A stretch of DNA of 64,000 bases from Ignavibacteriota bacterium (GTDB lineage Bacteria > Bacteroidota > Ignavibacteria > UBA10030 > CAVZMI01). The stretch is taken from the NCBI GenBank assembly GCA_963835935.1, contig CAWIHK010000005.1:459166-523165 (forward strand), written 5' to 3'. Below the pieces are notes generated by a model. That model did not search any database. It was given only the letters and a program-made list of their open reading frames with translations, and was not told the origin of the DNA. The translations under genes were made by a program, and so were the position numbers. Below, piece by piece: positions 8,867 through 54,419 of this stretch. Numbering within the stretch: the first letter of the stretch is position 1; each line of letters begins with the position of its first letter.

Positions 8867-8975
8867 TATTCTAAAAACCCTCATTTTTCTGAATCACATA
8901 AAATCCTTTAAATACAGGCTTTTTTGTATTTTTCCCTTGACTTTCATGCGTAAAGCATTAAATTTCGAAGCAAGA

Positions 8976-9005
8976 GTGGGTAAAAGTGGGTAAACGGGGG
9001 AATGA
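8976..9005 (+). promoter_or_regulatory. Proximal array of three 10-bp-phased repeats GTGGGTAAAA GTGGGTAAAC GGGGGAATGA, ending about 33 nt upstream of the mraZ start. Candidate MraZ autoregulatory operator within the dcw promoter.
   Basis: Two perfect GTGGGTAAA units plus a third degenerate unit at exact 10-bp spacing immediately upstream of mraZ (9038). Confidence 0.5.
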
Positions 9006-9037
9006 GATTCTAAGAGGGTTTATTTAAAAGGAATGAC

Positions 9038-9487: not shown

Positions 9488-9590
9488 TGAATGAACGTTC
9501 TTTTTGCCGGACACAAATTCACTCTTACATTGTTATACAGAGCAATGATATGGGTGAATGTCGGCGGCGATGGATGTTCGGAGATCGGCA

Positions 9591-10529: not shown

Positions 10530-10530
10530 C

Positions 10531-37263: not shown

Positions 37264-37975
37264 GTTCTATAATTCTTCCTGTTTTGTTGATATTAATATT
37301 TTCGAATAATGCTTTAAAAATACCTCATATTGAGGTAGAATGCAAGGGTTTACTACCAGTAAGAGAGAATGATGAAGAAATAATTATTTTGATTGCCGAT
37401 AAATGTGTTGTAGGTCGAAGTTGTACTTCGATTTTATTCGAATCGATGATTGAAAATAGAAAAATAAGAAATATCACCCTTTACGAGATCGTCTACGAAA
37501 AAGCTCCTTGAATTATCTTCGGCTATCCTGCTTCACATCATTCAATATTTCCATTAATTCGTCCGAGAAAAAAACAATATCTGCAAGTCAATTTTGGTTA
37601 ATATTACTTAATTTCATCAATAATTACAAATGATGATATTATTTTCCTTGCCTTGTAATTTTTATTTTGGTAAATTATGGTCTGTAAGGAAGTCAGTAGT
37701 GGTCAGGAAAAGATTTAATACGAAATTTTGTAGTGCGGTCGTTGAAATGACGTTCTATTTTTATCATAGAGTTTTTAATTGTCGTTCGCTGTTCCTTTCA
37801 CCTTTCCGCATATACATTTTTCCTTTAAGAACGCTTTTTAGAAAAATTCTTTTGTGGTTCTGTCTCATGAAGTTTATGTACCTTGATTCCGATAATATTT
37901 GGAAGATCAGGGTAATTTGAATTGCCAGATTACACTTATAAATGAAAATATAATTTAATAAAGGAGTTTTCTGTA

Positions 37976-38758
37976 ATGCAAATCTTTGTCATTCTTAAAA
38001 TGGTGCCTGATGTTGTGGAAGAACTTGTCATCGGCAAGGATGGTAAATCTCTCGATGAGGAATCCATCCGGTTTAAACTCAGCGAACCTGATGAACATGC
38101 GCTCGAAGAAGCCGTGCTCCTAAAAGAAAAATGCGGCGGTTCGATTACCGCTTTAGCGCTCGACGCGCCGGATGTCAACGATGCACTGTACCTTGCGCTG
38201 GCGAAAGGCGCCAACCAGGCATTCCGGGTCTCCGGCGAGTGTAAAGGCTGGCAAACATCCGTTGTTGCGAATCTTTTCACATCATTCTTGTCTTCACGTT
38301 TCGGCACTCTTACAAATGAAACAATAGTGCTGACAGGATCGCAGGCAATTGACGATGTTGAGGGAGAACTTGGCGCTTGTCTATCTGAGCTGCTGAAGAT
38401 TCCTTATATAAGCGTTGTAACAGGATTGAGTGTAGACGGAGGAGCGAAGTCGGCCACAGTACTTAAGGAATTTTCAGGAGGACTTCGCGGTGAGTTCACA
38501 TTGCCGCTTCCTGCGGTTATTGGAATTCAATCGGCATCGAAGCCCCCCCGCTATGTTCCGGTTGCAAAAGTTAATGCAGCAAAAAAAACTGCTAAAATCG
38601 AATCTGTTTCAATTCCTGCTGCAAATGCACAATCTACTTTGTCGATTCGAAAGATGTTTACTCCGGTAGCTACAGGAAAAGCTGAGATGCTTGAGGGATC
38701 ACCGAAAGATATCTCGGCTCGCTTAATTGAAATAATTACGCAACGTGGAATTTTATAG
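37976..38758 (+). CDS. etfB: Electron transfer flavoprotein beta subunit (EtfB-1).
   Basis: N-terminal MQIFVILKMVPDV... with a typical EtfB fold and length. Precedes etfA. Confidence 0.8.
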   Translation: MQIFVILKMVPDVVEELVIGKDGKSLDEESIRFKLSEPDEHALEEAVLLKEKCGGSITALALDAPDVNDALYLALAKGANQAFRVSGECKGWQTSVVANLFTSFLSSRFGTLTNETIVLTGSQAIDDVEGELGACLSELLKIPYISVVTGLSVDGGAKSATVLKEFSGGLRGEFTLPLPAVIGIQSASKPPRYVPVAKVNAAKKTAKIESVSIPAANAQSTLSIRKMFTPVATGKAEMLEGSPKDISARLIEIITQRGIL

Positions 38759-38771
38759 GGAAGATAAGATC

Positions 38772-39743
38772 ATGGCAAAAGAAATTATTGTTGTTTCAGA
38801 AATTCTTCAGGGAAAAATTTCCGATATCACTTATGAAATGCTTGGTGTCGGACGAAAACTTGCTGACGGCATCCAGAAACCCCTGCTTGCATGTGTTGTT
38901 GGAACCGATGGTTCGGCTCTTGCAAAAAACCTTGGAACAGCCGATAAGGTTTTGCTTGCTGAAGATCAAGCGTTTGCCGCTCCTACATCAGAAGCGATTG
39001 CATCTTTCATTGTCGAAATTATCAAGCAAAGAGAACCCGCACTTGTGCTTATTGGCGGGACAAATATTGGCACTGGCGTCGGTACCATTCTTTCATTACG
39101 CACAAATTTACCTCATATAAATTTTTCAAAAGATATTCAGTTAGAAAATGGAAAAATTGTCGTCACCAGTCAATTATTTGGCGGTAAAATTCTTGCCGAG
39201 GTAGAAGTACCAGCCGGTGGAGCTATTTTAAGCGTTGTGCCCGGCGCGTTCCCAATAGAAGCTGGAAAAAGCACGCGTTCGCCGGAAGTTGAGAAGTTGA
39301 CAATCCCAGCCGGTGAATCGAAAATAAACTTTAAACAGTTCATAGAACCTGAGACGGGTGATGTTGATATCACCAAACAAGATGTACTGATATTTGTCGG
39401 ACGGGGAATTGAAAATGAATCGAATCTGGAACCTGCAGAGGAGTTGGCAAAAGTTCTGGGAGGAGCTGTATGTGGATCACGTCCGGTGATCGATCAAGGA
39501 TGGTTGCCCTTGAGCCGACAAGTCGGAAAATCAGGAATGATGGTGAAGCCGAAATTATATCTAGCGTTGGGCATTAGTGGGGCGCCGGAACATATTGAAG
39601 GGATGAAAAATTCGGAACTTATCGTCGCTATTAATAGTGATCCTAAAGCTCCAATTTTCAACATAGCTCATTACGGTGCAGTTGCCGATATCCAGGAACT
39701 CATACCTGAATTAAAGGATGCAATCGAAAAGAAAAAGGGATAA
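38772..39743 (+). CDS. etfA: Electron transfer flavoprotein alpha subunit (EtfA-1).
   Basis: C-terminal FAD-binding region (LYLALGISGAPEHIEGMKNSELIVAINSDPKAPIF). Confidence 0.85.
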   Translation: MAKEIIVVSEILQGKISDITYEMLGVGRKLADGIQKPLLACVVGTDGSALAKNLGTADKVLLAEDQAFAAPTSEAIASFIVEIIKQREPALVLIGGTNIGTGVGTILSLRTNLPHINFSKDIQLENGKIVVTSQLFGGKILAEVEVPAGGAILSVVPGAFPIEAGKSTRSPEVEKLTIPAGESKINFKQFIEPETGDVDITKQDVLIFVGRGIENESNLEPAEELAKVLGGAVCGSRPVIDQGWLPLSRQVGKSGMMVKPKLYLALGISGAPEHIEGMKNSELIVAINSDPKAPIFNIAHYGAVADIQELIPELKDAIEKKKG

Positions 39744-39746
39744 TCG

Positions 39747-41792
39747 ATGGAAAACGCTGTCATTACACCTATACGACCTACTTATTGGAATATCCCTCAC
39801 TGGGCAGAAATTGGCCAGTACTTGTTTGGTTTTCTGGCCATTGCTATTTTTATTTATGGCTTGTGGATACATCTCCAACGCTGGCGTTCAGGTAAATCGG
39901 AAAAAATCGAATTGACTTTGGGTCAACGTATCCAGGCATTTTGCAAGTATGCCCTTCTTCAAGCTCGACTTTCCACAGAGCCGCGTGCACTCATTATGCA
40001 CTTGGGTATTTTTTGGGGGATGGTGTTCCTGGCAATAGGTACGGCGCTTGCAACCGTTGATTGGGATGTTACACATCTGTTCTTCGGTTTTCAATTTCTC
40101 GTGGGTCACTCCTATATATTATTTGAATTAGTGTTGGATATTGCCGGTGTTGTATTGATTGTCGGTCTAATTATTGCAATTTATCGGCGTTACATTTTAC
40201 ACCTTGAAAAACTTAAAACCATTTCACCTCCAACTTTCCCATTAGATTCTTTCTACCTGCTAGCCATACTTCTTGTAGTGGCAGTCACCGGATTTCTTAT
40301 CGAAGGATTAAGGCTCGCGATAACCGACATTCGTTGGGAAGAATCAAGAAGCTGGGCATTTGCAGGAAATGGATTGTCAAAATTATTCAGACTGATGTCG
40401 GATGATGCCATTAGGAGTTCTCATCTCTTTTTATGGATTGTACATGCACTTTTTGCGTTTGTATTCATCGCTAGTATTCCTTTCTCCAAAGCATTCCATA
40501 TGGTAGCTTCAGGCGTAAGTATCTTTCTGCGCAGGATTTCAAATCCAGGTATACTTCATCCGGAAGGAACGAGCGTTGAAAAGATCTCCGATTTTACATG
40601 GCGTCAACTTTTACAATTTGACGGTTGCACATGGTGCGGGCGATGCCAGGAAGTATGTCCAGCAAATATCAGTGGATACTCTCTTTCCCCGAAAAATGTA
40701 ATCCTCAAACTCAATGGGCAACCGGTAGAGAGGCAAAAAAAAGAAAGTAACGACAAAGATTCACAGACAAATACATCGGCGCTTCACGGCTCGGCGATTA
40801 CTGCCGAAGAACTTTGGGCTTGCACAACATGCATAGCTTGCGAAGTTGCATGTCCTGTTTTCATCGAACAACCGAGAGCTATCATAGAGCTTCGTCGCCA
40901 TCTTGTTAACCAAGGGGAAATTGACAAGAACCAGCAAGAAACGCTTGCTCGTATGCAGCGATACGGTAATTCTTTTGGTCAATCCGACCGCATGCGCGCA
41001 AAATGGACAGAGGGATTGGAATTCAAGATCAAAGATGCCCGTAAAGAACCAGTAGAATATCTCTGGTGGGTTGGCGATTACGCTTCATACGATGCACGCC
41101 TGCAAGATATCACACGGATGACAGCAAAGTTATTTAACCTCGCGGGGCTTGATTTCGGAATTGCTTACGAAGGTGAACGAAATTCAGGTAACGATATTCG
41201 TCGCATCGGTGAGGAAGGATTATTTGAGCTTCTTAAGGATAAAAATCTACAGACTCTCAACAAAGCAAAATTCCAGACCATCGTAACAACCGATCCGCAT
41301 GCATATAACGCACTAAAAAATGAATATAGCCTAAACGGTAACGGCAACACGTTGAAAGTAAAGCATTATACAGAAGTACTAGATGACATGATTAAACGTG
41401 GCCAACTGAAACTCACAAAGAAATCATCATTACACGTAACCTATCACGATCCCTGCTACCTCGGCCGGTATAATGGTATCTATAATGAGCCGCGAAATAT
41501 ACTGCGAGCAATAGGAGTTAATCTGATAGAAATGAAGCGGAATGGTGATAGAAGTTTCTGCTGCGGAGCCGGCGGTGGAAGGATTTGGATGGAAGAGGAT
41601 GCAAGCATTAAGGAACGTCCCTCGGAAAATCGTATTCGTGAAGCAGTAGCTGAGACACACGCAGAGATATTTGTTGTCGCATGTCCAAAGGATATGGTGA
41701 TGTTCCAGGATGCTGTAAAGACAACTGGTAATGAAGCTAAAATCGTTGTTCGTGACATTTCCGAACTTGTATGGGAAGCATTAGAGCATTGA
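39747..41792 (+). CDS. Membrane-bound heme-b/Fe-S oxidoreductase. An N-terminal NarI/HdrE/DsrM-like multi-TM domain is fused to an HdrD/DsrK-like module (two 4Fe-4S, two CCG). Putative Etf:quinone oxidoreductase (EMO-type).
   Basis: About 5 TM helices with His residues. CTWCGRCQEVCP and CTTCIACEVACP ferredoxin motifs. CCG domains (HDPCYLGRYN...CCGAGGGRIWMEE). Immediately downstream of etfBA. Confidence 0.7.
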   Translation: MENAVITPIRPTYWNIPHWAEIGQYLFGFLAIAIFIYGLWIHLQRWRSGKSEKIELTLGQRIQAFCKYALLQARLSTEPRALIMHLGIFWGMVFLAIGTALATVDWDVTHLFFGFQFLVGHSYILFELVLDIAGVVLIVGLIIAIYRRYILHLEKLKTISPPTFPLDSFYLLAILLVVAVTGFLIEGLRLAITDIRWEESRSWAFAGNGLSKLFRLMSDDAIRSSHLFLWIVHALFAFVFIASIPFSKAFHMVASGVSIFLRRISNPGILHPEGTSVEKISDFTWRQLLQFDGCTWCGRCQEVCPANISGYSLSPKNVILKLNGQPVERQKKESNDKDSQTNTSALHGSAITAEELWACTTCIACEVACPVFIEQPRAIIELRRHLVNQGEIDKNQQETLARMQRYGNSFGQSDRMRAKWTEGLEFKIKDARKEPVEYLWWVGDYASYDARLQDITRMTAKLFNLAGLDFGIAYEGERNSGNDIRRIGEEGLFELLKDKNLQTLNKAKFQTIVTTDPHAYNALKNEYSLNGNGNTLKVKHYTEVLDDMIKRGQLKLTKKSSLHVTYHDPCYLGRYNGIYNEPRNILRAIGVNLIEMKRNGDRSFCCGAGGGRIWMEEDASIKERPSENRIREAVAETHAEIFVVACPKDMVMFQDAVKTTGNEAKIVVRDISELVWEALEH

Positions 41793-43018
41793 TAGAAAGA
41801 ATGAATGCAATGAAAACAAATGAAGTGACCGTAGAATCGGTAGACAACTTGACGTTAGAAAACCTCTTCAGTACACCTGAAGGACAGAAGGTTCTCTCAT
41901 GCATCCAATGCGGAATGTGTGCTGGTACATGTCCTTATGGTGAATATATGTTGTATCCGCCGCGTCGCATTATAGAGATGCTGCGTGCAGGATTGATCGA
42001 GGAAGTGTTCGAATCGAACAGTCTTCTCAATTGTGTTGCTTGCTACGCGTGTATGGCAAAATGTCCCCGCGATATTCATCTGACAGAAGTTTTATTGCCT
42101 TTTATTAAAGAAGAGATGTTTGCACGATTGACTGAAGTACCGGCGGAATTACAAACGGCTCTGCAGAACATGTTGCGCTACGGGAATCCGGATGGATTCT
42201 CACCGCGAAAGCGTGCAGATTGGGTGAAAACAATCGATCTTCCTGTTCGAATTTTACCAGATAATCCGAAGCCGGTGGATGTTTTATGGTTCGTAGAGTG
42301 TACTCCTTCTTACTATCCTCGCGGGCAGGAAGCAAGCCGTGCAGTTGCAAAACTTTTTCACGTGATCAACACTGATTTCGGAATTCTCGGCAACGAAGAA
42401 CGTTGTGCAGGCGAATGCGCACGACTTGTCGGCGAAGCAGGTCTTTTCGATACGCTTCGTGAACGTAATATGGGCGTTTTCAAAAAATTCCAATTTAACC
42501 AAATTGTCACGAGTGATGCACATGCATACGATGCCTTCAAATATATCTATCCTATGCATGGATTCAATTATCCATTGGAGCATACCACAACATATTTCGT
42601 TAAACATCTTGCAGAATTGAAACCTCATCTAACAAAGAAAGTAAATTACACCATCACATTTCACGACAATTGCTGCCTCAGCCGCCATAACGATCTTTAT
42701 AAAGAACCGCGTGCATTGCTTTCGGCAATTCCCGGCGTAAAACTTGTAGAGATGACACACAATCATGTGAATTCACAATGCTGTGGTGGAGGTGGCGGGG
42801 GAATGTGGTTGGATACATACTATAAGAGTAAAGGAATGGATCGTCTTTCCGATCGACGGATAAAAGAAGCAATCGCTACTGGAGCTGATGTTCTGGCTGT
42901 TTCATGTCCTTATGAAGTCTCACGATTTGAAGACGCTCTTAAATTGATCGGATATGAAAACAAAATGATCGTAAAAGATATAATGGAATTATTGGCGGAA
43001 TCTTTAGGAGAAATTTAA
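41771..43018 (+). CDS. Soluble HdrD/GlpC-like Fe-S oxidoreductase (two 4Fe-4S, two CCG domains).
   Basis: CIQCGMCAGTCP and CVACYACMAKCP motifs, and CCGGGGGGMW. Confidence 0.75.
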   Translation: MGSIRALIERMNAMKTNEVTVESVDNLTLENLFSTPEGQKVLSCIQCGMCAGTCPYGEYMLYPPRRIIEMLRAGLIEEVFESNSLLNCVACYACMAKCPRDIHLTEVLLPFIKEEMFARLTEVPAELQTALQNMLRYGNPDGFSPRKRADWVKTIDLPVRILPDNPKPVDVLWFVECTPSYYPRGQEASRAVAKLFHVINTDFGILGNEERCAGECARLVGEAGLFDTLRERNMGVFKKFQFNQIVTSDAHAYDAFKYIYPMHGFNYPLEHTTTYFVKHLAELKPHLTKKVNYTITFHDNCCLSRHNDLYKEPRALLSAIPGVKLVEMTHNHVNSQCCGGGGGGMWLDTYYKSKGMDRLSDRRIKEAIATGADVLAVSCPYEVSRFEDALKLIGYENKMIVKDIMELLAESLGEI

Positions 43019-43019
43019 T

Positions 43020-45029
43020 ATGGCAAAAGAAAACGGAGAAATACGAATTGGATGTTACATATGTCATTGCGGTGTAAACATCGCTTCTATAGTTGATGTC
43101 AAGGCTGTCAGAGATTATATGACATCGATTCCCAATGTCGTGTTGTCCCGGGATTATAAATATATGTGTTCAGATCCAGGACAGGAACTCATCCAGCAAG
43201 ATATTAAAGAACATAAGCTCAATCGTATCATTATAGCATCATGCTCACCATTGCTTCATGAACATACATTCCGCGTAGCTGTGGAAAAGGGAGGACTCAA
43301 TCCTTTTTATTTTCAGATGGTAAATATTCGTGAGCACGATTCATGGGTTCATACAGATAAAGCGGCTGCAACAGAAAAAGCAAAGGCACTTATGTATGCT
43401 GCCGTTCAACGTGTAAGATTGCATAAACCTCTTTCACCAAAATCTGTTCCTGTCGATCCTCATGTATTGATTGTCGGAGGCGGAATCGCTGGTATTCATG
43501 CCGCATTATCACTAGCAAATGCCGGCAAGAAAGTTACGCTTGTTGAACGAGAGCCTACTATCGGCGGACACATGGCAAAATTCGATAAGACTTTTCCAAC
43601 ACTAGATTGCGCAGCTTGTATCTTGACTCCTAAGATGTCTGCTGTTCGTTCTCATCCAAATATCACTTTGTGGACATATTCAGAAGTTGTTAAAGTAGAT
43701 GGTTTTGTTGGCAATTATAAAGTTACTGTAAAACACAAACCAAGATATGTTATTGAAGATTTGTGCATCGGCTGTCTTGAATGTATCGAGGCATGCATAT
43801 ACAAAGAGGGGAAATATCCGGATGAGTTTAATGAAAAACTAAGCAAACGAAAACCGGTTTACATTCCATTTCCTCAGGCGACGCCACAGGTTGTGCTCAT
43901 TGATCCGGATACATGCATCGATTTCAAGACAGGTAAATGTAAAAAAACGTGCATTGAAGTATGCGGCGACCGGAATGCGATCGACCTCAAACAAAAAGAA
44001 AAGATAGAAGAAATTCAGGTTGGCACTATTATACTTGCAACCGGATTTCAGGTTTTCGACGCACATAAAATTCCGTATTACGGTTACGGTACCTATCCTA
44101 ACGTTTATACAGCTTTGGAAGTTGAACGCCTGATAAACGCCAGCGGCCCGACTAGCGGAGAAATTGTACTGCGTGACGGCCGAAAGCCGAAGACTATCGG
44201 CATTATTCATTGCGTTGGTTCACGAGATGAGAACACAAATCGCTGGTGCTCGCGCGTCTGCTGTATGTATTCACTCAAACTGGCACACCTAATTCATGAA
44301 CGAACAGAAGCGGAAATATATAATTTTTATATCGACATGCGCGCGCCCGGTAAATTAATGGAAGAGTTTTACAATCGCGTCGCGCAAGAAGGTGTTCATC
44401 TAATTCGCGGCAAGGTTGCCGATATTTATCCGGACACTACCGACGGTGAAAGTAAACGTCTCATCCTTCAGGCAGAAGATACACTTCTCGGCCGCATATT
44501 GAAAATTCCCGTTGATATGGTTGTGCTTGCAGTGGGACTTGAACCGCATGCCGATGCGCAGGATGTGCGGCGATTATTTAATATTTCGTGTTCGACGGAG
44601 GGTTTCTTCCTTGAACGCCATCCGAAACTTGCGCCTGTGAATACATTCACCGATGGTATTTTCATCGCAGGCTGCTGTCAGGGACCGAAAGATATCCCGG
44701 ATACTGTTGCACAAGCCGGCGCTGCTGCATGTGAAGCATTGGCTCTCATAGACAAGGGTGAAATCGAACTTGAACCAAATACTGCCTTCGTGGTGCAGGA
44801 GGAATGCTCTGGCTGCCGTACATGCCTCACGATCTGCCCATACAATGCTATCTCGCGTGATGAAGCGAAACAGAAAGCTTTTATTAATGAAGCACTCTGT
44901 AAAGGTTGCGGTACTTGTGTAGCAGCATGTCCGTCGGGTGCCATTAAGCAGAATTTATTTGAAGACGAGATGATTTTCAGTGAAATCGATGGCTTGCTGG
45001 AAGTAGAACAAGAAGCGTGTTGCTTATAA
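43020..45029 (+). CDS. hdrA: Heterodisulfide reductase subunit A-like FAD/Fe-S flavoprotein (HdrA).
   Basis: FAD GxGxxG (VIVGGGIAGIHAAL), several CxxCxxCxxxCP ferredoxin motifs, and a conserved HdrA C-terminal domain. Confidence 0.85.
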   Translation: MAKENGEIRIGCYICHCGVNIASIVDVKAVRDYMTSIPNVVLSRDYKYMCSDPGQELIQQDIKEHKLNRIIIASCSPLLHEHTFRVAVEKGGLNPFYFQMVNIREHDSWVHTDKAAATEKAKALMYAAVQRVRLHKPLSPKSVPVDPHVLIVGGGIAGIHAALSLANAGKKVTLVEREPTIGGHMAKFDKTFPTLDCAACILTPKMSAVRSHPNITLWTYSEVVKVDGFVGNYKVTVKHKPRYVIEDLCIGCLECIEACIYKEGKYPDEFNEKLSKRKPVYIPFPQATPQVVLIDPDTCIDFKTGKCKKTCIEVCGDRNAIDLKQKEKIEEIQVGTIILATGFQVFDAHKIPYYGYGTYPNVYTALEVERLINASGPTSGEIVLRDGRKPKTIGIIHCVGSRDENTNRWCSRVCCMYSLKLAHLIHERTEAEIYNFYIDMRAPGKLMEEFYNRVAQEGVHLIRGKVADIYPDTTDGESKRLILQAEDTLLGRILKIPVDMVVLAVGLEPHADAQDVRRLFNISCSTEGFFLERHPKLAPVNTFTDGIFIAGCCQGPKDIPDTVAQAGAAACEALALIDKGEIELEPNTAFVVQEECSGCRTCLTICPYNAISRDEAKQKAFINEALCKGCGTCVAACPSGAIKQNLFEDEMIFSEIDGLLEVEQEACCL

Positions 45030-45085
45030 TGAAGTAAGAAAGGAAAATCAAGTACAGGTTTCTAATGTCGAATTTGGGCTAACGT

Positions 45086-45120
45086 ACTTTTCTGCCTCTA
45101 TGAAAAGTGTCTTTTAGCTT
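45086..45120. terminator. Candidate bidirectional terminator between the convergent hdrA and EMO-2 genes.
   Basis: A 7-bp stem (ACTTTTC / GAAAAGT) with a 9-nt loop, followed by GTCTTTTAGCTT. Confidence 0.35.
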
Positions 45121-45151
45121 AAGTGAAGATGACAAGAGTTCTTATGAACCG

Positions 45152-47158: not shown

Positions 47159-48494
47159 AGTTATTTACTAATGATTTCTTTTTAAGTTCCCGGATGTGGT
47201 TGGTAAGAGCAGGAATTACTTCAAAAAGGTTTCCTACGATTCCGTAGTGGGCAACATGAAAAATTGGGGCGTCCTTATCGCGGTTAATTGCAATAATCAT
47301 ATCGGAGTCCTGCATCCCGACTAGATGTTGAATGGCTCCAGAGATTCCACAGGCGATGTAGACCTTTGGCCGGACAGTTTTTCCGGTCTGACCAACTTGG
47401 CGTTCTACAGGCATCCAGCCGGCATCTACTGCACTGCGTGAAGCTCCGACGACTCCTCCCAATTCATCCGCCAATTCCTGAAGAATTGTAAAGTTTTCCT
47501 TTGCCATCATACCTCGACCGCCTGAGACTATGAAATCAGCGCCAGCAATATCGACGAACTCTTTGTGCTTAGCATCAGAGAGAATCTCGAGAACTTGGAC
47601 TAAAACATTCTTTTCTTGAATAGGGCAGGTTTCTTTTATAATTTCTCCCTGTATACTGGGTTTATGTTTGGGCATCCGCATAACGTGAGGTCGCACTGTA
47701 GCCATTTGAGGTCGAAACTTTTCGCAGAGGATACTGGCCATTATATTACCACCAAAAGCCGGACGTGTTTGAAGGAGGTGCCCTTTATCTGTAATGGAGA
47801 GGCCGGTACAATCGGCTGTTAGACCGGTTTTAAGCTTGGTTGCAACAGCTCCCGCCAAATCTCTTCCAAGTCCAGTAGCGCCCATAAGTAGGATTTCAGG
47901 TTTGTATTTCTCCACAAGGTAGCAAATCCCATTGAGATATGATACTGTACGGTAATGTTTAAAAATTGGCGCATCAAGGAGGTAAATCTTCTGTACGCCA
48001 TAAGCGAACGCTTCCTGACAAACGTGTTCGACTTTATGACCTATAACGACTGCGGCAAGCTCGACATTTAAATTTTTAGCAAGGTCAGCGCCTACTCCAA
48101 GTAACTCCCATGACACCTTTGCCGGATCCCCTTCTGTTTGTTCAATGAAAACCCACACTCCCTTATAAGGAGCAATTCTTTTAGTTACAATTGCTTGCTC
48201 GTCATCAACTTCTTCGACATGTGCGGCAGGTTTGGCTTTCTTTTTGAATTCTTCGAGGATTTTTAATTCTTCAGGGGTGAAAAACATTTCTAAGGCATCC
48301 GAGGGACATACTTTAACGCACTTGACGCATCCGATACACTTGGGGAGATCGATAATAGGCTCGCCCAATTCATTCATCTCAATAGCATCAGTTGGACACA
48401 CGCTCTGGCAACGTGCACCGCAGGCGATACATTTGACCTCAATTAATCTAGCTTTACCTCGAGGCTTTTTTATCGGTTTCGGTTTATCTATCAT
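47127..48494 (-). CDS. etfA: EtfA-2 with an N-terminal 2x[4Fe-4S] ferredoxin domain (CarE/FixB-like, as in bifurcating-type Etf).
   Basis: CIACGARCQSVCP and CIGCVKCVKVCP motifs followed by the full EtfA (…VYIACGISGAIQHLVGMQDSDMIIAINRDKDAPIF). Confidence 0.8.
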   Translation of the reverse strand: MIDKPKPIKKPRGKARLIEVKCIACGARCQSVCPTDAIEMNELGEPIIDLPKCIGCVKCVKVCPSDALEMFFTPEELKILEEFKKKAKPAAHVEEVDDEQAIVTKRIAPYKGVWVFIEQTEGDPAKVSWELLGVGADLAKNLNVELAAVVIGHKVEHVCQEAFAYGVQKIYLLDAPIFKHYRTVSYLNGICYLVEKYKPEILLMGATGLGRDLAGAVATKLKTGLTADCTGLSITDKGHLLQTRPAFGGNIMASILCEKFRPQMATVRPHVMRMPKHKPSIQGEIIKETCPIQEKNVLVQVLEILSDAKHKEFVDIAGADFIVSGGRGMMAKENFTILQELADELGGVVGASRSAVDAGWMPVERQVGQTGKTVRPKVYIACGISGAIQHLVGMQDSDMIIAINRDKDAPIFHVAHYGIVGNLFEVIPALTNHIRELKKKSLVNNFEINREVHVI

Positions 48495-48513
48495 AGATTC
48501 TTAATATTAAAAG

Positions 48514-49326
48514 CTAAAAAGCAAGAATTTCATTTTGAATAAGCTTTTGAACTAGAAGCTCAACAGTTCCTTTAGGATCTTTGATTCCATCTCCAATAAT
48601 TTCTCCTTTTTCGCGTTCAGGGGAAAATATTTTTGTAACCACGGTAGGTGATCCCTTTAAACCGACAGCAGATGAATCTATATTCAACACTTTATTGTCC
48701 CAAAGCTTAACTTCTGCTTCTTCAGAGAGAAGTCTTCTCGGAACCGTAGGATAACGAGGGCGATTGATTTCTCTGACTACTGTGAGCAAAGCCGGGAGAG
48801 GAGCTTCCACGATCTCATGCCTTCCTTCAAGCTTTCTTCTAACCCGGATCATCTTGGCTTTAGTATCGAGATGTTCAATCCTGTCTACAAGAGTAAGTTG
48901 GATATAGTTAAGGCGAGTGGCGATTCCAGGTCCAACCTGTGCTGTGTCGCCGTCTATTGTCTGTTTGCCGCAGATGACAAGTCCCACTTCTTCTTCTCGA
49001 GATAGCCTTTGGATGGCTGCTGAAAGAACATAACTTGTGGCTAGTGTATCTGCTCCCGCAAAAACACGGTCCGAAAGGAGAATCGCCTCATCTACTCCTA
49101 GAGCAAGCGCCTTTCTTAAAGTTATTTCTGTATTAGGCGGGCCCATCGAGATAACCGCAACTTTGAATCCAAATTTATCTTTCAATCTTAAACTTTCTTC
49201 AACAGCATGGATATCATAGGGATTGATGATAAAGGGAATTCCCTCGCGGACTAAAGTATTGGTCACGGGATCAATTTTCACTTGCGTTGTATCTGGGACT
49301 TGCTTAATACAAGCTACGACTAACAT
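48514..49326 (-). CDS. etfB: Electron transfer flavoprotein beta subunit (EtfB-2).
   Basis: MLVVACIKQVPDTTQV... EtfB N terminus, 270 aa. Confidence 0.8.
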   Translation of the reverse strand: MLVVACIKQVPDTTQVKIDPVTNTLVREGIPFIINPYDIHAVEESLRLKDKFGFKVAVISMGPPNTEITLRKALALGVDEAILLSDRVFAGADTLATSYVLSAAIQRLSREEEVGLVICGKQTIDGDTAQVGPGIATRLNYIQLTLVDRIEHLDTKAKMIRVRRKLEGRHEIVEAPLPALLTVVREINRPRYPTVPRRLLSEEAEVKLWDNKVLNIDSSAVGLKGSPTVVTKIFSPEREKGEIIGDGIKDPKGTVELLVQKLIQNEILAF

Positions 49327-49678
49327 CGCTTTTTCTTTCTTTTCCTATATAATATCACTCTTTTTTATTACAAAACGAAAGCTCTATTCCATTTTGGATT
49401 AAAAAAATTAAGTGTATTTTAACAAAATGTTGAATGAAAAGCAAATTATTTAATTCATTTAATTTACGTACGAAAATTATAAGATGAAAATACAAGATTG
49501 CTATTCGACAGAATTTTTGTTAATTTTACTAATAATTTATATTTCAGTGGCATGAATTATATCGAGAAGTGTGCGTATACTGAGGCAAAACCTCGGATGA
49601 GTTCAACGCTGGACTAAATACGGTCTGCGGATAATTCAATAAGCAGCCGTTATTTAATAATGAATTGGAGAAAATGAG

Positions 49679-50191
49679 ATGTCAACAACGGTAGAACAAC
49701 ATAAAACTAACGGCTGGGAACCGCGCATAGTTGCTTTCTTTTGCAATTGGTGCACCTACACTGCGGCAGACCTGGCCGGTGTATCAAGAATCCGATATGC
49801 GCCGAATGCGCGTATCATACGTGTGATGTGCTCGGGGCGCGTCGATCCGCAATTTATTCTTGATGCTTTTTCCAAAGGAGCCGACGGTGTTCTTATTGGC
49901 GGCTGTCATCCCGGCGACTGTCATTATATGGAAGGCAACTACAAAGCGCTACGTCGCATGCAATTGCTCAAACGGATGATGAAAGATATGGGAATCGAAG
50001 AAAACAGATTTCGTCTCGAATGGATCTCTGCATCCGAAGGCGAACGAGTAAAAACCGTTATTAACGAAATGACAGAACAGATACGCACACTCGGCCCCCT
50101 TGGACTGCCGAAGAAGTTTGAAGAGTGGGATGAGGAACTGGAATCTCTTGAACACGAAATCAACGGAAAGGGGGATACAGTCCATGCCTGA
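49679..50191 (+). CDS. mvhD: MvhD/FlpD-like [2Fe-2S] electron-transfer subunit.
   Basis: FFCNWCTYTAADLAGVSRIRYAPNARIIRVMCSGRV...GGCHPGDCHY is the MvhD signature. Confidence 0.85.
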   Translation: MSTTVEQHKTNGWEPRIVAFFCNWCTYTAADLAGVSRIRYAPNARIIRVMCSGRVDPQFILDAFSKGADGVLIGGCHPGDCHYMEGNYKALRRMQLLKRMMKDMGIEENRFRLEWISASEGERVKTVINEMTEQIRTLGPLGLPKKFEEWDEELESLEHEINGKGDTVHA

Positions 50192-51152
50192 TAAACCTAA
50201 AGTTGCTTTCTATTGGTGTGCCTCGTGTGGGGGCTGTGAAGAATCAGTTGTCGATCTTGCAGAAAATATTCTTGATGTGGTTGCTGCGGTTGACATTGTC
50301 ATGTGGCCTGTTGCGATGGACTTCAAGAAAAAAGATGTCGAAGATATGGCAGATGGTTCTATCCTTGTTTCTTTGGTGAACGGAGCGATTCGAACTTCCG
50401 AACAGGAAGAGATGGCAAAACTCATGCGGAAAAAGAGTAAACTTATTATTGCCTACGGCTCGTGTGCGCATACGGGAGGCATTCCCGGACTTGCCAATCA
50501 ATTCGAGCGAGAGGAAGTGCTCAGATATGTGTACGAAGAATCTCCGTCGACGATAAATCCGCAAAAGACACGACCGGAACTTAAAGTTATCACGAACGGA
50601 AGTGCGGTCACCCTTCCAAATTTTTTCAATGTCGTTCGCGCACTCAATCAAGTAATCGATGTCGATTACTATTTGCCTGGATGTCCGCCGACACCGAAGT
50701 TATTAAAGCAAGCCATTGACGTACTTCTTTCCGGAAAATTACCTGAAAAAGGAACCGTACTCGCTCCAGATATCGCATTGTGTGACGAATGCCCGAAGAA
50801 AGATTCGAAACCGAGTGATTTGAAATTCACAGAATTCAAACGCCCGCACTGGACTGACATTGATCCAAAAACATGCCTGCTGGCCCAGGGCATAATCTGC
50901 ATGGGACCGGCAACCCGTGGAGGATGTGAGGGTGTTTGTATTTCAGGGAATATGCCATGCACAGGCTGTTTCGGACCTACATCTCGAATAATAGATCAAG
51001 GTGCAAAAATTCTTTCTGCTCTCGCTTCACAAGTCGAGGCAAAAGATGAAAAAGGAATCGATGAAACGTTGGCAACTATCCCCGACCCTGTTGGAACATT
51101 CTATCGATACGGTTTACCGGTATCACTCTTAAGAATAAAAAATTTTAAATAG
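50184..51152 (+). CDS. mvhG: [NiFe] hydrogenase small subunit, group 3c (MvhG-like). The ORF is open from 50100, but ATG 50184 overlaps the mvhD stop (ATGCCTGA).
   Basis: KVAFYWCASCGGCEES proximal-cluster motif and a C-terminal Cys cluster. Confidence 0.85.
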   Translation: MPDKPKVAFYWCASCGGCEESVVDLAENILDVVAAVDIVMWPVAMDFKKKDVEDMADGSILVSLVNGAIRTSEQEEMAKLMRKKSKLIIAYGSCAHTGGIPGLANQFEREEVLRYVYEESPSTINPQKTRPELKVITNGSAVTLPNFFNVVRALNQVIDVDYYLPGCPPTPKLLKQAIDVLLSGKLPEKGTVLAPDIALCDECPKKDSKPSDLKFTEFKRPHWTDIDPKTCLLAQGIICMGPATRGGCEGVCISGNMPCTGCFGPTSRIIDQGAKILSALASQVEAKDEKGIDETLATIPDPVGTFYRYGLPVSLLRIKNFK

Positions 51153-51177
51153 TACGATTTGAAATCAAGGAATAAAT

Positions 51178-52656
51178 ATGAAAGCAACATTCACTACGAC
51201 ACGACGTGTAACAATAGAACCTATAACTCGCCTGGAAGGTCATGGAAAGATCGATATCTTTCTCGATGACAAAGGTGAGGTGACAAAAGCATACTATCAA
51301 ATTCCTGAGTTGCGCGGTTTCGAGATTTTCTCAAAAGGACGGCCCGCCGAAGATATGCCACAAATTACAAGCCGCATCTGCGGTGTCTGCCCGACAGCGC
51401 ACCACATGGCAGGCACAAAAGCGCTCGACGATTTGTATCAAGTCGATCCTCCAATTCCAGCAAAAAAAATTCGTGAACTCATCTATAGTACCTTCATGCT
51501 GGAAGATCATGCCTTGCATGTCTACATTCTTGGTGGACCCGATTTTATCGTCGGCCCGGATGCACCGAAAGAACAACGTAACGTAGTTGGTGTGATAGGA
51601 AAAGTAGGCATCGAAGTCGGAAAGCGAGTCATTACTACACGAAAACGGCTGCGTGAGTTTATTGCGTATGCCGGGGGAAAAGTTATTCATCCGGTATTCG
51701 GACTCCCCGGCGGCGTAGCAAAAGGAATCACGTCGGATCAATTGCCGAAACTCAAAGAGCTTGCAAACGACGGACTCGATTTTGCACTCTTCACCCTAGA
51801 GGTGTTCAAGAACATCGTGTTGAAAAACGATGAGTATGTCAAACTTATCACATCCGACACCTACACACATAAAACGTACTACATGGGTTTGGTGGATGAA
51901 AAGAATCAGCCGAATTTCTACGATGGAATGATTCGCGTTGTCGATCCGAACGGAAAAGAGTTTGTAAAATTCCGGCCGCAAGAATATTTGAATCATATCG
52001 CCGAACATGTTGAACCGTGGAGTTATGTGAAATTCCCTTATTTGAAAAATGTCGGATGGAAAGGATTTGAAGAAGGGATTGAAAGCGGGATCTATTCAGT
52101 GGCGCCGTTAGCTCGGTTGAATGTCGCCGACGGCATGTCGACGCTTCAGGCTCAAAAAGCATTCGAAGAATATTACAGCACGTTCGGCGGTAAACCTGTT
52201 CATCATACGCTGGCAAATCATTGGGCTCGTGTTATTGAAATGATCAACGCAGCAGAGCGCATGGTCGAACTTGCAAACGATCCTGACATCACAAGTACGA
52301 ACATCCGTTTGATACCGACTGCAACACCTCATGTCGGGGTCGGTGTAGTTGAAGCTCCGCGCGGTACGTTATTCCACCATTACGAAACAGATGAACGCGG
52401 TATCATGACAAAAGCAAACCTGATCGTTGCGACCCAAAATAACTCCGGCCGCATCTCGATGAGTGTTGAAAAAGCTGCAAAAGGTTTGATTAAAGGCGGA
52501 GTGGTAAATGACGGGTTGTTGAATATGATCGAGATGGCATTTCGCGCTTACGATCCGTGCAACGCCTGCGCGACGCATTCACTTCCGGGTAATATGCCGT
52601 TGCAAATCCGGCTTCGAAATCAGAAAGGAGAAGTGGTCGGCGAGATTAAATCATAA
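51178..52656 (+). CDS. mvhA: [NiFe] hydrogenase large subunit (MvhA-like) with a cleavable C-terminal extension.
   Basis: N-terminal RICGVCPTAHH (L1 RxCGxCxxxH) and C-terminal DPCNACATH (L2 DPCxxCxxH) followed by a 25-aa tail. Confidence 0.9.
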   Translation: MKATFTTTRRVTIEPITRLEGHGKIDIFLDDKGEVTKAYYQIPELRGFEIFSKGRPAEDMPQITSRICGVCPTAHHMAGTKALDDLYQVDPPIPAKKIRELIYSTFMLEDHALHVYILGGPDFIVGPDAPKEQRNVVGVIGKVGIEVGKRVITTRKRLREFIAYAGGKVIHPVFGLPGGVAKGITSDQLPKLKELANDGLDFALFTLEVFKNIVLKNDEYVKLITSDTYTHKTYYMGLVDEKNQPNFYDGMIRVVDPNGKEFVKFRPQEYLNHIAEHVEPWSYVKFPYLKNVGWKGFEEGIESGIYSVAPLARLNVADGMSTLQAQKAFEEYYSTFGGKPVHHTLANHWARVIEMINAAERMVELANDPDITSTNIRLIPTATPHVGVGVVEAPRGTLFHHYETDERGIMTKANLIVATQNNSGRISMSVEKAAKGLIKGGVVNDGLLNMIEMAFRAYDPCNACATHSLPGNMPLQIRLRNQKGEVVGEIKS

Positions 52657-52668
52657 GGAGTTACTCCG

Positions 52669-53898
52669 ATGAAAAAAATCGCATTCCTGGTTTTCCTGTT
52701 CATAATCGGTGATCTAACTTTTATTCAAGCACAGGATCATCGACACCTCGACACGGCAATATTTATTAACAAGCAAAATGAATTTTTTGATTCTGTAAAA
52801 ACAAGTCTCGAAAAATTTTATAAGAAAGATACTCTTGCTAAAAAAGAGATAAGCGTTGATTTCACAAAGTGGAATCCGCCGATATCGGTCGATAATTTTA
52901 CAACATACTGGCATAATAAACTTATCTCACAGGCAGTTACAGGTACGTGTTGGTGTTTCTCCACTATCTCGTTTTTCGAATCAGAAATTTATCGTCTGAC
53001 AAAACGCGAAATAAAACTCTCGGAACTTTACACGGTGTACTGGGAGTATGTTGAAAAGGCTCGCGGATACGTCCGCACGCGCGGCGAACAAGAATTCGGA
53101 GAAGGTTCCGAATCGGATGCTGTGATCCGCATCTGGAAAAATCATGGAATTGTTCCTGCCGGTGCTTACCCTGGATTACTCGGCGGCCAGCCGTTTCACG
53201 ATCACCGGAAAATGTTTGCCGAATTGGATGCATATCTCAAATCATTGAAGACGACTAATGTATGGGATGAAGATGCAACGGAACATGCTGTTAAATCGAT
53301 ACTCAATCATTACATCGGCGCTCCTCCCGAAAAGATTACAGTAGATGATCAAGAAATGACTCCGAAGGAATATTTTGCAAAAATTGTAAAATTGAATCTC
53401 GATGATTATGTGGAGCTTGTTTCACTTTCCGATCGCCCATATTATGAATGGACGGAGTATGATGTTCCGGATAACTGGTGGCATAGCAAAGCATATTTCA
53501 ACGTTCCGCTTAGTGAATTTATAAACGCAATAAAAAAAGCGATTCGCAATGGCTATACGATGGCGATTGGCGGCGACGTGACTGAACCGGGCATTTATGG
53601 GCATGCCGGCATAGCAGTGGTACCCAGTTACGATATTCCTTCAGAGTACATCGATGAGAGCGCTCGTATTTTCCGATTTAAGAATGGAACAACAGGTGAC
53701 GATCATGGAATTCATCTCGTCGGGTACTTACAAAAGAACGGAACGGATTGGTATCTTATAAAGGATTCCGGTTCCGGTTCAAGAAATAATGCTCATCCGG
53801 GATATTATTTTTTTCATGAGGATTATATAAAATTAAAGATGTTGGGAGTGATGCTACCAAAGAGCGCCATGCCCGAGATCGCAAACAAAATGAAATGA
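52669..53898 (+). CDS. Papain-like cysteine peptidase (C1 family, aminopeptidase C/bleomycin-hydrolase-like) with an N-terminal signal peptide.
   Basis: Signal peptide MKKIAFLVFLFIIGDLTFIQA. Catalytic Cys context QAVTGTCWCFS and His context DHGIHLVGY. Confidence 0.6.
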   Translation: MKKIAFLVFLFIIGDLTFIQAQDHRHLDTAIFINKQNEFFDSVKTSLEKFYKKDTLAKKEISVDFTKWNPPISVDNFTTYWHNKLISQAVTGTCWCFSTISFFESEIYRLTKREIKLSELYTVYWEYVEKARGYVRTRGEQEFGEGSESDAVIRIWKNHGIVPAGAYPGLLGGQPFHDHRKMFAELDAYLKSLKTTNVWDEDATEHAVKSILNHYIGAPPEKITVDDQEMTPKEYFAKIVKLNLDDYVELVSLSDRPYYEWTEYDVPDNWWHSKAYFNVPLSEFINAIKKAIRNGYTMAIGGDVTEPGIYGHAGIAVVPSYDIPSEYIDESARIFRFKNGTTGDDHGIHLVGYLQKNGTDWYLIKDSGSGSRNNAHPGYYFFHEDYIKLKMLGVMLPKSAMPEIANKMK

Positions 53899-54419
53899 CA
53901 GTTGATCCATCAAACATAAACCAAAATTCCGGTTCAGGGCGCACAGAAGACGCGCCCTGTTCCATTTTAGTACTGGCTCTCGGCAACGACATCATGGGTG
54001 ACGATGCCGTTGGCTTGCATGCCGCAAAAGCGCTTCGCAAGAAGTTTTCGAACCGAATTACAATAATCGAAGCAATGATTGCAGGTTATTCGTTGCTCGA
54101 TATTCTCGACGGATATTCTCATGTTCTTCTAATCGATGCCGTTACAACTGGAAAAAGCCTACCGGGCGCCATCCGTGAATTTTCGAAAGAAGAGTTCGAA
54201 ACATTATATGCTGCTTCGCCGCATTATGTAGGAATCCCGGAGGTACTCACTTTAGCAAAACGGTTAGGATTACAAATGCCGGTTGAATTCCGGATTTTAG
54301 CGATGGAAATTTCCGACACACATGAATTACGAGAATGCTTAAGCCCGAAAATAAACGAAGCGCTTCCGAAATTTATTCAATATGCTGAAGATATTATCCG
54401 AGGGTGGTTGACTCAGTAA
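53895..54419 (+). CDS. Hydrogenase maturation endopeptidase (HyaD/HybD/HycI family).
   Basis: LVLALGNDIMGDDAVG...LLIDAV motifs. ATGA overlap with the upstream gene. Confidence 0.8.
   Translation: MTVDPSNINQNSGSGRTEDAPCSILVLALGNDIMGDDAVGLHAAKALRKKFSNRITIIEAMIAGYSLLDILDGYSHVLLIDAVTTGKSLPGAIREFSKEEFETLYAASPHYVGIPEVLTLAKRLGLQMPVEFRILAMEISDTHELRECLSPKINEALPKFIQYAEDIIRGWLTQ

Follow-up and report, generated by a model that had tools for sequence, protein, structure and literature searches.

To which acceptor does a group 3c [NiFe] hydrogenase pass its high-potential electron when it is linked to heterodisulfide reductase (Hdr) proteins in bacteria that, to our knowledge, make no CoM-S-S-CoB, the heterodisulfide of coenzymes M and B? 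This question is raised by a redox gene locus at positions 37976-54419 of a 64,000-nucleotide stretch of DNA (hereafter the window) from an Ignavibacteriota bacterium (GenBank assembly GCA_963835935.1, contig CAWIHK010000005.1). Bacterial clusters that combine such a hydrogenase with Hdr genes have repeatedly been mentioned with 'functions yet unknown', the Caldithrix genome paper (PMC5317091) being one case, and elsewhere have simply been annotated as MvhADG/HdrABC (PMC7509429). The locus consists of 13 closely spaced genes that form three transcription units, according to its open reading frames (ORFs) and their Pfam and NCBIfam matches (Table 1). The first unit, on the plus strand, is etfB1-etfA1-EMO1-hdrD-like-hdrA, with gaps or overlaps of at most about 20 nucleotides between neighbours. 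A minus-strand unit convergent with it encodes a second electron-transferring flavoprotein (Etf2, with a ferredoxin domain, Fd, fused to EtfA2) and a second membrane Etf:quinone-oxidoreductase-like protein (EMO2), whereas another plus-strand unit, divergent from etfB2, consists of mvhD-mvhG-mvhA, a C1 peptidase gene and a maturation protease gene. A previous examination of this DNA made from the letters alone (the sequence-only reading) had proposed a possible bifurcating network linking H2, Etf-bound flavins and the quinone pool through two duplicated Etf/EMO modules; all the genes and domains that it named are found where it had placed them, the C1 peptidase having gone unnamed. Comparison with related loci divides the locus differently, into one conserved, co-directional functional unit (etfB1-etfA1-EMO1-hdrD-like-hdrA plus mvhDGA and the maturation protease gene) and a separate cassette inserted into it. 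We give a probability of roughly 55% to the view that the conserved unit encodes a hydrogenase system linked to the membrane, in which flavin-based bifurcation would send the electrons of H2 to both ferredoxin and menaquinone; such a complex, its electron route, its acceptors and its direction we infer from the gene content, cofactor ligands and synteny described below.

The synteny comes from a scan in which each GTDB species was represented by a single genome; 239 of the species encode a relative of the HdrD-like protein. We inspected the best 80 of these 239 loci with 10 kb flanks and annotated their ORFs against 13 window proteins. The five genes hdrD-like, etfB1, etfA1, EMO1 and hdrA lie together on one strand in 62 of the 80 loci; mvhD is present as well in 48, and all eight genes (the core five and mvhDGA) in 28, most of the genes missing from related loci being accounted for by contig ends or by the 10 kb flank limit. 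The cluster spans Bacteroidota, Ignavibacteriota, Acidobacteriota, Verrucomicrobiota, Gemmatimonadota and other phyla, and occurs in three gene orders. The window shares etfBA-EMO-hdrD-hdrA-mvhDGA with Bacteroidota, Ignavibacteriota and Opitutaceae; the commonest order, hdrD-etfBA-EMO-hdrA-mvhDGA, is that of Acidobacteriota, Gemmatimonadota and Zixibacteria; and mvhDGA-hdrD-etfBA-EMO-hdrA is found in some Verrucomicrobiota and in a metagenome-assembled genome (MAG) labelled Methylacidiphilum. That the core gene order is kept in dozens of species from many phyla is far beyond chance, and the occurrence of three orders, the commonest of which places etfBA-EMO between hdrD and hdrA, argues for co-function over chance adjacency. 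The cofactor ligands of every cluster subunit are invariant across phyla. Clusters of this kind also surround the genes of more remote EMO1 homologs (52-54% identical), where sensor kinase genes and individual hdrC and hdrB genes are interposed. When all other ORFs of 78 loci were clustered against one another, the only recurrent neighbours were two-component regulators (30 loci) and HdrB/C-like genes, and neither a conserved acyl-CoA or other substrate dehydrogenase nor a conserved thiol carrier (DsrC, TusA, LbpA) was found near the cluster.

The hydrogenase is Mvh/Vhu-like and has an MvhD subunit, in agreement with the sequence-only reading. The best NCBIfam matches of MvhA, MvhG and MvhD are VhuA (404 bits, next class 168), VhuG (212 bits, next 82) and VhuD (131 bits), well ahead of other hydrogenase classes yet under the equivalog cut-offs, and MvhD carries a FlpD domain. 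MvhA retains the Ni-Fe ligands RICGVC (C68, C71) and DPCNAC..H (C461, C464) together with the processing site H467, all invariant in 28 sequences. C22, C25, C51, C76 and C81 of MvhD are invariant among aligned relatives, as are the cysteine ligands of MvhG, and a HycI-like maturation gene lies 3' of mvhA in many related loci. The subgroup of MvhA is not fixed by sequence scores; its likely 3c hallmarks are the MvhD subunit and the linkage to HdrA. In the closest relative of the window, locus L003 from a Bacteroidota MAG (79-89% nucleotide identity), mvhD lies directly 3' of hdrA; the two genes are co-directional in 48 of the 80 loci and 4.6 kb apart in the window. The alignment of HdrA with its methanogen counterpart (8rvu_a, 725 bits) covers residues 7-660, the full length; HdrA has the flavin adenine dinucleotide (FAD) domain as well as the inserted and C-terminal ferredoxin domains, and keeps all of its Fe-S cysteine motifs, which are invariant in 54 sequences. 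It is presumed to be the site of electron bifurcation.

The soluble HdrD-like protein is likely the adaptor between HdrA and Etf1, since its N-terminus resembles the HdrA-binding HdrC (5odc_C, 58 bits) and its C-terminus the Etf-accepting NCB domain of EtfD/EMO (9ojn, 141 bits). No transmembrane segment was found in it by hydropathy. Its conserved ligands comprise eight cubane-cluster cysteines, C177, C212 and C216, to which its first CCG motif is reduced, and C301, C337, C338 and C379; the second CCG motif has four to five cysteines. The HdrD-like protein is the best conserved of the cluster, with 62-89% identity across phyla as compared with 31-72% for EMO1 and 43-60% for EtfB and EtfA in all loci except L003 (81-88%), and its best 120 database matches, from many phyla, are 67-86% identical. 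Such conservation fits a subunit with two protein partners. The sequence-only reading had correctly recognised the partners of HdrA as HdrD-like CCG proteins in place of separate HdrB and HdrC: no ORF of HdrB or HdrC type (that is, separate genes, HdrB with two complete CCG motifs) was found within the 64 kb window, only the fused HdrD-like protein. However, the absence of hdrB and hdrC, which that reading took for an anomaly, is none, as the HdrD-like protein is itself a fusion of an HdrC-like and an HdrB-like part.

The Etf encoded in the same unit belongs, to judge from its motifs, to the non-bifurcating type, outside group 2. We searched for group-2 signatures taken from the paper on Thermotoga maritima EtfABCX (PMC10734219) or known from Etf classification work: DGDTAQVGP, VRxG[VI] and GxPTxV are all absent from EtfB1, and RPxFGG from EtfA1. 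The two signatures surveyed across orthologs, DGDTAQVGP and RPxFGG, are absent from 72 of 72 aligned Etf1-type sequences, including that of the window. EtfA1 has SQLFGG in place of RPxFGG and conserves the FAD-domain motif SRPVIDQGW...GISGAPEH. The best PDB match of EtfB1 is the beta subunit of the AMP-binding W3A1 ETF (1o94_C, 94 bits), bifurcating Etfs scoring at most 60 bits.

EMO1 and EMO2, both encoded beside etfAB, have five hydrophobic N-terminal helices each according to hydropathy, which bears out the membrane features previously claimed for these CCG proteins; the match of the EMO membrane domain to Pfam NarI is weak (20 bits, below the 22.9 cut-off). In EMO1, H85, H233, H251 and eight cubane-cluster cysteines are invariant (65 sequences), whereas the first CCG motif has no cysteine and the second has lost one, keeping four (C570, C605, C606, C646). 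EMO1 matches the mycobacterial (Mycobacterium smegmatis) EtfD (9ojn_A) with 219 bits, and the best Foldseek match of its AlphaFold2 model (predicted local distance difference test score, pLDDT, 78.7) is again EtfD 9ojn (E 7.5e-29, 736 columns), followed by LutA (9a6l_A), HdrB and NarI. Sequence and predicted structure point to an EtfD/EMO three-domain fold and to a divergent relative of the EMO/EtfD family. Both proteins have a pair of histidines 18 residues apart on helix V and one histidine on helix II (H233/H251 and H85 in EMO1; H211/H229 and H68 in EMO2), and we take the helix V histidines of NarI to be spaced like H233/H251. As a separate observation, the stretch encoding the EMO1 membrane domain (window 39678-40959 versus L003 6654-7904) cannot be aligned with that of L003, although its neighbours show 79-89% nucleotide identity, and whole EMO1 is 49% identical between the two; the membrane domain encoded in the window is closest to those of the Verrucomicrobiota loci L078 and L039 (52%). 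This suggests that the membrane-domain segment was replaced in one lineage.

Every part of the locus can be placed in, or likened to, a known family (Mvh, HdrA, EMO/EtfD, group-2 and non-bifurcating Etfs), and a precedent for their joint action is offered by class II benzoyl-CoA reductase of Geobacter metallireducens. There, the HdrA-type BamE bifurcates and the high-potential electron passes via the HdrD-like BamD to a non-bifurcating ETF, which has been seen docked at the BamD non-cubane clusters; BamD is an HdrBC fusion with a usually disrupted distal non-cubane cluster, and an EMO is proposed to reoxidise the ETF and to reduce menaquinone (bioRxiv 10.64898/2026.04.10.717634). By cryo-electron microscopy of EMO, ETF docks via EtfB and its FAD domain swings to the EMO non-cubane clusters (bioRxiv 10.64898/2026.08.18.745454). 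Type II clusters of the sulfur-oxidising Hdr-like (sHdr) system likewise contain sHdrB3-etfAB-emo, with a proposed electron flow to menaquinone (PMC11094781). Counterparts to all components of the BamE-BamD-ETF-EMO route are encoded by a single operon in the conserved unit.

In a mechanism copied by analogy from this BamE-BamD-ETF-EMO route, MvhA and MvhG would oxidise H2 and MvhD would relay the electrons to the HdrA-bound FAD. Ferredoxin would receive the low-potential electron by way of the HdrA ferredoxin domains. The high-potential electron would enter the HdrD-like protein at its HdrC-like clusters, move on to the non-cubane cluster site that remains there, and then reach the FAD of the non-bifurcating Etf1. 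Reduced Etf1 would then swing or diffuse to the equivalent site on EMO1, whose two cubane clusters would deliver the electrons via heme b to the menaquinone pool. The net reaction would be 2 H2 + 2 Fd(ox) + MK -> 2 Fd(red) + MKH2 + 2 H+ (Fd, ferredoxin; MK, menaquinone; MKH2, menaquinol), reversible in principle. The connection of H2, Etf flavins and quinone put forward by the sequence-only reading is strongly backed for Etf1/EMO1, by the synteny and by the BamE-BamD-ETF-EMO precedent; Etf2/EMO2 are a separate insertion (see below).

The standard potentials of H2 (-414 mV), menaquinone (-74 mV) and ferredoxin (about -450 mV) make the forward reaction favourable above about 1 Pa H2 and the reverse only below. 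We favour H2 uptake over H2 evolution, the direction not being fixed. A complex working mainly in reverse, in which catabolic dehydrogenases or complex I would supply reduced Etf1 or menaquinol, electrons from this source and from reduced ferredoxin would confurcate at HdrA and H2 would be evolved during fermentative or syntrophic growth, seems unlikely to us. Bifurcation of the Mvh-Hdr type is reversible in principle, the hosts include fermentative Ignavibacteriota, Bacteroidota and Verrucomicrobiota of anoxic peat and groundwater (according to record titles), a reconstruction from an Ignavibacteriae MAG gives the 3c/Hdr hydrogenase a role in reoxidising reduced carriers (PMC7509429), and a characterised EMO runs both ways (PMC8805022). 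Nevertheless, H2 evolution would demand less than about 1 Pa H2, the 78 loci show no acyl-CoA or other substrate dehydrogenase conserved beside the cluster, and nothing in the sequence fixes such a direction.

The conserved unit can be set against several known systems. With the MvhADG-HdrABC complex of methanogens (5ODC, 8RVU), it shares MvhA, MvhG, MvhD, a full-length HdrA with all cluster ligands, an HdrC-like dicluster domain beside HdrA, the presumed bifurcation at the HdrA FAD and ferredoxin as the presumed low-potential acceptor. It is not itself a member of that class, since separate HdrB and HdrC are missing in the window, their parts being fused and the first CCG motif degenerate. 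CoM/CoB metabolism is not expected in these bacteria, and the hdrA operon also contains genes for EtfAB and a membrane EMO, which points to quinone, not heterodisulfide, as the high-potential acceptor. BamDEF with its ETF and EMO (bioRxiv 10.64898/2026.04.10.717634) would use the same route from an HdrA-type protein through an HdrD-like fusion and a non-bifurcating ETF to EMO, the HdrD-like protein being likened to BamD by description only. The input here would be a [NiFe] hydrogenase acting via MvhD instead of the NADH/ferredoxin-confurcating BamGHI, the low-potential output would presumably be free ferredoxin instead of the tungsten enzyme BamBC, and the ETF and EMO genes share an operon with hdrA. 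The locus is not a class II benzoyl-CoA reductase cluster: no genes for AOR-type BamB, BamC or NuoEF-like BamGHI were found in 37976-54419 or its flanks.

The type II sHdr cluster shdrC1B1AHB3-etfAB-emo (PMC11094781) resembles the conserved unit in that sHdrB3, to which the HdrD-like protein is again likened by description only, is an HdrC+HdrB fusion, has the capacity for just one non-cubane cluster and is encoded with etfAB and emo. It differs in its short sHdrA, HdrA here being of the long methanogen type and attached to a hydrogenase. Membership in this class was rejected, as the window has no sHdrC1, sHdrB1, sHdrH or short sHdrA and no sulfur-transferase or lipoate-binding family is conserved nearby. 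Neither were sHdr genes found upstream of hdrD-like in a locus labelled Thermoplasmatota (L027) and in one from Anaerolineae (L044), where a rubrerythrin-like ORF and sensor kinases occur instead. Lastly, EMO1 and EMO2 share with the EMO/EtfD proteins, represented by SaEMO of Syntrophus aciditrophicus and M. smegmatis EtfD (9OJN), the five-helix NarI-like domain, two cubane motifs, the NCB domain and the adjoining etfAB genes, EMO1 departing from them by its lost CCG cysteines and by its lower score against 9ojn than that of EMO2 (383 bits). Full-text literature searches, which did not cover most subscription journals, returned no description of an Mvh-HdrA-HdrD-Etf-EMO cluster or of its Etf/EMO linkage. 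The conserved MvhAGD-HdrA-HdrD-like-EtfAB-EMO cluster may, somewhat tentatively, be regarded as a so far uncharacterised membrane-coupled bifurcating complex from H2 to ferredoxin and menaquinone.

Several observations weigh against a bifurcating route from H2 to menaquinone. In the PDB, MvhA matches the NiFe-HydABCSL subunit 7t2r_D (390 bits) better than Mvh-type subunits (350-365 bits; MvhA 5odc_F 360) or HoxH (5xf9_D, 322 bits), scores that do not separate the Mvh and HydABCSL types, and the paper on the HydABCSL enzyme assigns it to no group. The three conserved cysteines left in the degenerate first CCG motif of the HdrD-like protein make its cluster content uncertain, and the three invariant histidines of the EMO1 membrane domain do not settle the number of hemes. 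In the window, mvhDGA is now 4.6 kb from hdrA and needs its own promoter, none being detected by a sigma-70 scan, which does not extend to Bacteroidota promoters. Finally, an extra HdrC/B/D-like ORF occurs in 20 of the 80 loci and the distant loci L085 and L086 have separate hdrC and hdrB inside the cluster, so that a thiol or disulfide substrate has to be considered as well. Mvh-HdrA and the HdrD-like protein would in that case be a true disulfide reductase acting on a bacterial thiol/disulfide carrier (a DsrC-like protein, a lipoate-binding protein or a low-molecular-weight thiol), with Etf1-EMO1 either reoxidising the carrier or serving beta-oxidation separately. The catalytic site of HdrB is indeed made of CCG/NCB domains, the best NCBIfam matches of the CCG proteins are thiol/disulfide enzymes of the TfrB, TmcB and DsrK type (all under cut-offs), and the architecture of L085 and L086 resembles that of type II sHdr (C1B1 + B3 + EtfAB + EMO). 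We nonetheless consider such a reductase quite improbable: 60 of the 80 loci resemble the window in having no hdrB/hdrC-type ORF, no thiol-carrier family, whether DsrC, TusA or LbpA, is conserved nearby in the 78 loci, the first CCG motif is degenerate in the HdrD-like protein and in EMO1, in keeping with BamD and sHdrB3, to which a role in electron relay instead of disulfide reduction has been ascribed, and the commonest gene order has etfBA-EMO lodged between hdrD and hdrA.

The composite look of the locus is due, as alignment with its relatives indicates, to the insertion of a separate stand-alone cassette into the conserved cluster. By blastn, window 40959-45033 corresponds to L003 7904-12006 and window 49656-51146 to L003 11998-13492; hdrA abuts mvhD in L003, and the window is therefore 4.6 kb longer (45034-49655), exactly between these two genes. 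Because the hdrA-mvhD adjacency is found across phyla, it is ancestral and the cassette was gained in the lineage of the window. The EMO2-(Fd)etfA2-etfB2 module is present in none of the 80 related loci. Window 45110-49345 has 81% nucleotide identity to positions 7794-12029 of locus L084, in which these three genes form a unit of their own amid other neighbours, and the etfB-(Fd)etfA-EMO triplet is also stand-alone in Geobacter sp. AOG1 (L083). When its flanks were searched for direct and inverted repeats, the 4.6 kb insertion yielded nothing beyond matches at chance level (7-12 nucleotides), and no transposon, integrase or mobility genes were seen at its borders. Sigma-70 promoter and terminator scans of both cassette junctions yielded nothing above shuffled controls, the scan not modelling Bacteroidota promoters. 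The arrangement is not an assembly chimera: both junctions of the minus-strand cassette lie within window 41107-49885, to which L001, from an independent Logan assembly, is 100% identical.

These results bear directly on the network of the sequence-only reading, according to which the two Etf/EMO pairs and Mvh-HdrA would form one integrated bifurcating system specific to this locus. Its parts are all adjacent in an arrangement that is real, and the AT-rich spacer of 352 bp around which etfB2 and mvhD diverge could be a shared control region. Such integration nevertheless appears very unlikely, given that the second module is missing from the related loci, that hdrA and mvhD adjoin in L003 and that the cassette exists alone in L084 and Geobacter. 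Nor is the second module a duplicate of the first, EMO1 and EMO2 being only 31% identical and accompanied by different types of Etf. The layout, described as unusual in the sequence-only reading, is so as regards the two modules together, but its core is widespread; no earlier characterisation of this core was found.

The two Etf pairs, whose bifurcating and non-bifurcating signatures had been suggested for comparison, differ in type. EtfB2 has the motifs DGDTAQVGP, VREGI and GSPTVV and EtfA2 has RPAFGG, all the group-2 signatures sought. The best PDB matches of EtfB2 are all bifurcating (7koe_A 233 bits, CarD 212 and 5ol2_B 212, with human ETF at 90), and those of EtfA2 are CarE (6fah_A, 374 bits) and T. 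maritima EtfABCX (7koe_B, 319 bits), with human ETF at 171; 4kpu and LctBC, also bifurcating Etfs, are further structural relatives. On these motifs and matches, Etf2 is assigned to the bifurcating type, group 2. The CarE-type ferredoxin domain that had been attributed to one EtfA is confirmed for EtfA2 by its Fer4 domain as well as by the CarE match. EMO2, by its sequence features, is a canonical member of the EMO/EtfD family: its two complete CCG motifs (10 cysteines), eight cubane-cluster cysteines and H68, H211, H227 and H229 are invariant in 120 sequences, and its nearest named relatives are Geobacteraceae proteins (63-68% identity), the family in which Gmet_2070 counts as an EMO. Whereas the characterised partner of SaEMO is a non-bifurcating ETF (PMC8805022; bioRxiv 10.64898/2026.08.18.745454), that of EMO2 would be the bifurcating-type Etf2.

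The bifurcating type of Etf2 makes it most likely that the cassette operates independently. Etf2 shares its group-2 motifs with EtfABCX/FixABCX (7KOE) and CarCDE (6FAH) and its N-terminal ferredoxin domain with CarE, and no acyl-CoA dehydrogenase (CarC, Bcd) or lactate dehydrogenase adjoins the cassette in the window, L083 or L084. As in EtfABCX, it is paired with a quinone reductase, but this is EMO2 instead of the ETF-QO-like EtfCX/FixCX, and its use of NADH is predicted. By analogy, the cassette might couple NADH oxidation to the reduction of ferredoxin and menaquinone in the manner of EtfABCX/FixABCX, EMO2 replacing EtfCX, a proposal that we make with less than even confidence. With the cassette working in this way, it and the conserved unit would have only the ferredoxin and quinone pools in common.

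Some loci differ from the window in the neighbourhood of the cluster. The recurrent regulators comprise a Cache-HAMP histidine kinase, a REC-HisKA-HATPase hybrid and a stand-alone REC protein (L044 5266-8885; L085 11022-14587; L086 14618-18239). In the Armatimonadota locus L086, mvhG and mvhA are set apart by these regulators along with hdrC and hdrB; in Gemmatimonadota loci mvhA does not directly follow mvhG either, and the same interposition is possible there, the flanks ending too soon. No two-component regulator is found near the cluster in the window. L003 encodes a second, distant [NiFe] hydrogenase directly 5' of etfB1 (1542-4854), with subunits 30-35% identical to MvhG and MvhA and its own maturation protease, where the window has glycoside hydrolase genes. 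Locus L027 (JBBSVS010000104.1), labelled as a Thermoplasmatota archaeon, has hdrD-like (65% identical), etfB, etfA and EMO, preceded by the rubrerythrin-like ORF; its archaeal label reflects either inter-domain transfer or a binning error. All 80 best loci come from MAGs, mostly of peat, soil and groundwater, with no cultured isolate among them, and this MAG-only occurrence may explain why the cluster has been so little studied.

The features of the locus are collected in Table 1. The HdrD-like start at 41810 is the likely one because its homologs are 402 amino acids long. The C1 peptidase gene, between mvhA and the maturation protease gene, overlaps the latter by 4 nucleotides and is intact (motifs GTCWCF and HGIHLVGY); a peptidase with 73% identity is also encoded 3' of mvhA in L003 (15572-16882) and none was detected in the other 79 loci. 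It is probably unrelated to the redox function. The flanks of the locus are ordinary chromosome, with the dcw cell-division cluster (mraW to ftsZ) and glycoside hydrolase genes upstream, and a GNAT gene and an O-antigen-ligase-like gene downstream. A plus-strand ORF of 96 amino acids just 5' of etfB1 (37630-37920), outside the region that aligns with L003, has no Pfam or NCBIfam match, and two ORFs of 175 and 476 amino acids after ftsZ (26488-28420, plus strand) have no Pfam match.

Table 1. Genes and inserted segment of the redox locus, in window coordinates
Feature	Position	Strand	Evidence and remarks
etfB1, small subunit of non-bifurcating-type Etf	37976-38758	+	Pfam ETF, 71.6 bits
etfA1, large FAD-binding Etf subunit	38745-39743	+	Pfam ETF and ETF_alpha; start uncertain, alternative ATG at 38772
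EMO1, membrane Etf:quinone-oxidoreductase-like protein	39747-41792	+	NarI-like five-helix domain, Fer4 dicluster, two cubane motifs, CCG
Soluble HdrD-like protein, putative fusion of HdrC-like dicluster and HdrB/NCB-like parts	41771-43018 (ORF), likely start 41810	+	Fer4 and one CCG stretch
hdrA, full-length methanogen-type flavoprotein	43020-45029	+	NCBIfam HdrA2, 838 bits
EMO2, canonical EMO/EtfD-type membrane Etf:menaquinone oxidoreductase (predicted)	45152-47137	-	Five helices, Fer4, two CCG stretches
Fd-etfA2, large subunit of group-2 (bifurcating-type) Etf	47127-48494	-	N-terminal Fer4 (8 Cys, two [4Fe-4S]), ETF and ETF_alpha
etfB2, small subunit of group-2 (bifurcating-type) Etf	48514-49326	-	Motifs DGDTAQVGP, VREGI, GSPTVV
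mvhD, [2Fe-2S] adaptor subunit, predicted hydrogenase-HdrA docking	49679-50191	+	Pfam FlpD, 194.5 bits; NCBIfam VhuD
mvhG, [NiFe]-hydrogenase small subunit	50184-51152	+	Pfam Oxidored_q6; NCBIfam VhuG
mvhA, [NiFe]-hydrogenase large subunit, group 3, Mvh/Vhu-like	51178-52656	+	Pfam NiFeSe_Hases; NCBIfam VhuA
C1 (papain-family) peptidase with N-terminal signal/anchor helix	52669-53898	+	Pfam Peptidase_C1_2 and Peptidase_C1; hydrophobic N-terminus
[NiFe]-hydrogenase maturation endopeptidase	53895-54419	+	Pfam HycI; TIGR00072, 99 bits, above cut-off
Inserted segment with the Etf2/EMO2 cassette	45034-49655	n/a	blastn against the closest relative, L003

The presence of Etf and EMO genes in one operon with hdrA offers a concrete and testable answer to the question of the acceptor in bacterial 3c/Hdr clusters, namely the quinone pool for the high-potential electron. 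If correct, this would provide the missing function of group 3c hydrogenase/Hdr clusters in non-methanogenic bacteria, and one that would be widespread in Acidobacteriota, Verrucomicrobiota, Gemmatimonadota, Ignavibacteriota and Bacteroidota of soil, peat and groundwater. The route from HdrA through an HdrD-like protein and ETF to EMO, just described for benzoyl-CoA reductase, would become a general module, and the pairing of a bifurcating-type Etf with an EMO, seen in Etf2/EMO2 and also in Geobacter, suggests an enzyme that resembles EtfABCX but has another quinone reductase. In these abundant and mostly uncultured soil and sediment phyla, H2 would then be a source (or sink) of both respiratory electrons and low-potential ferredoxin.

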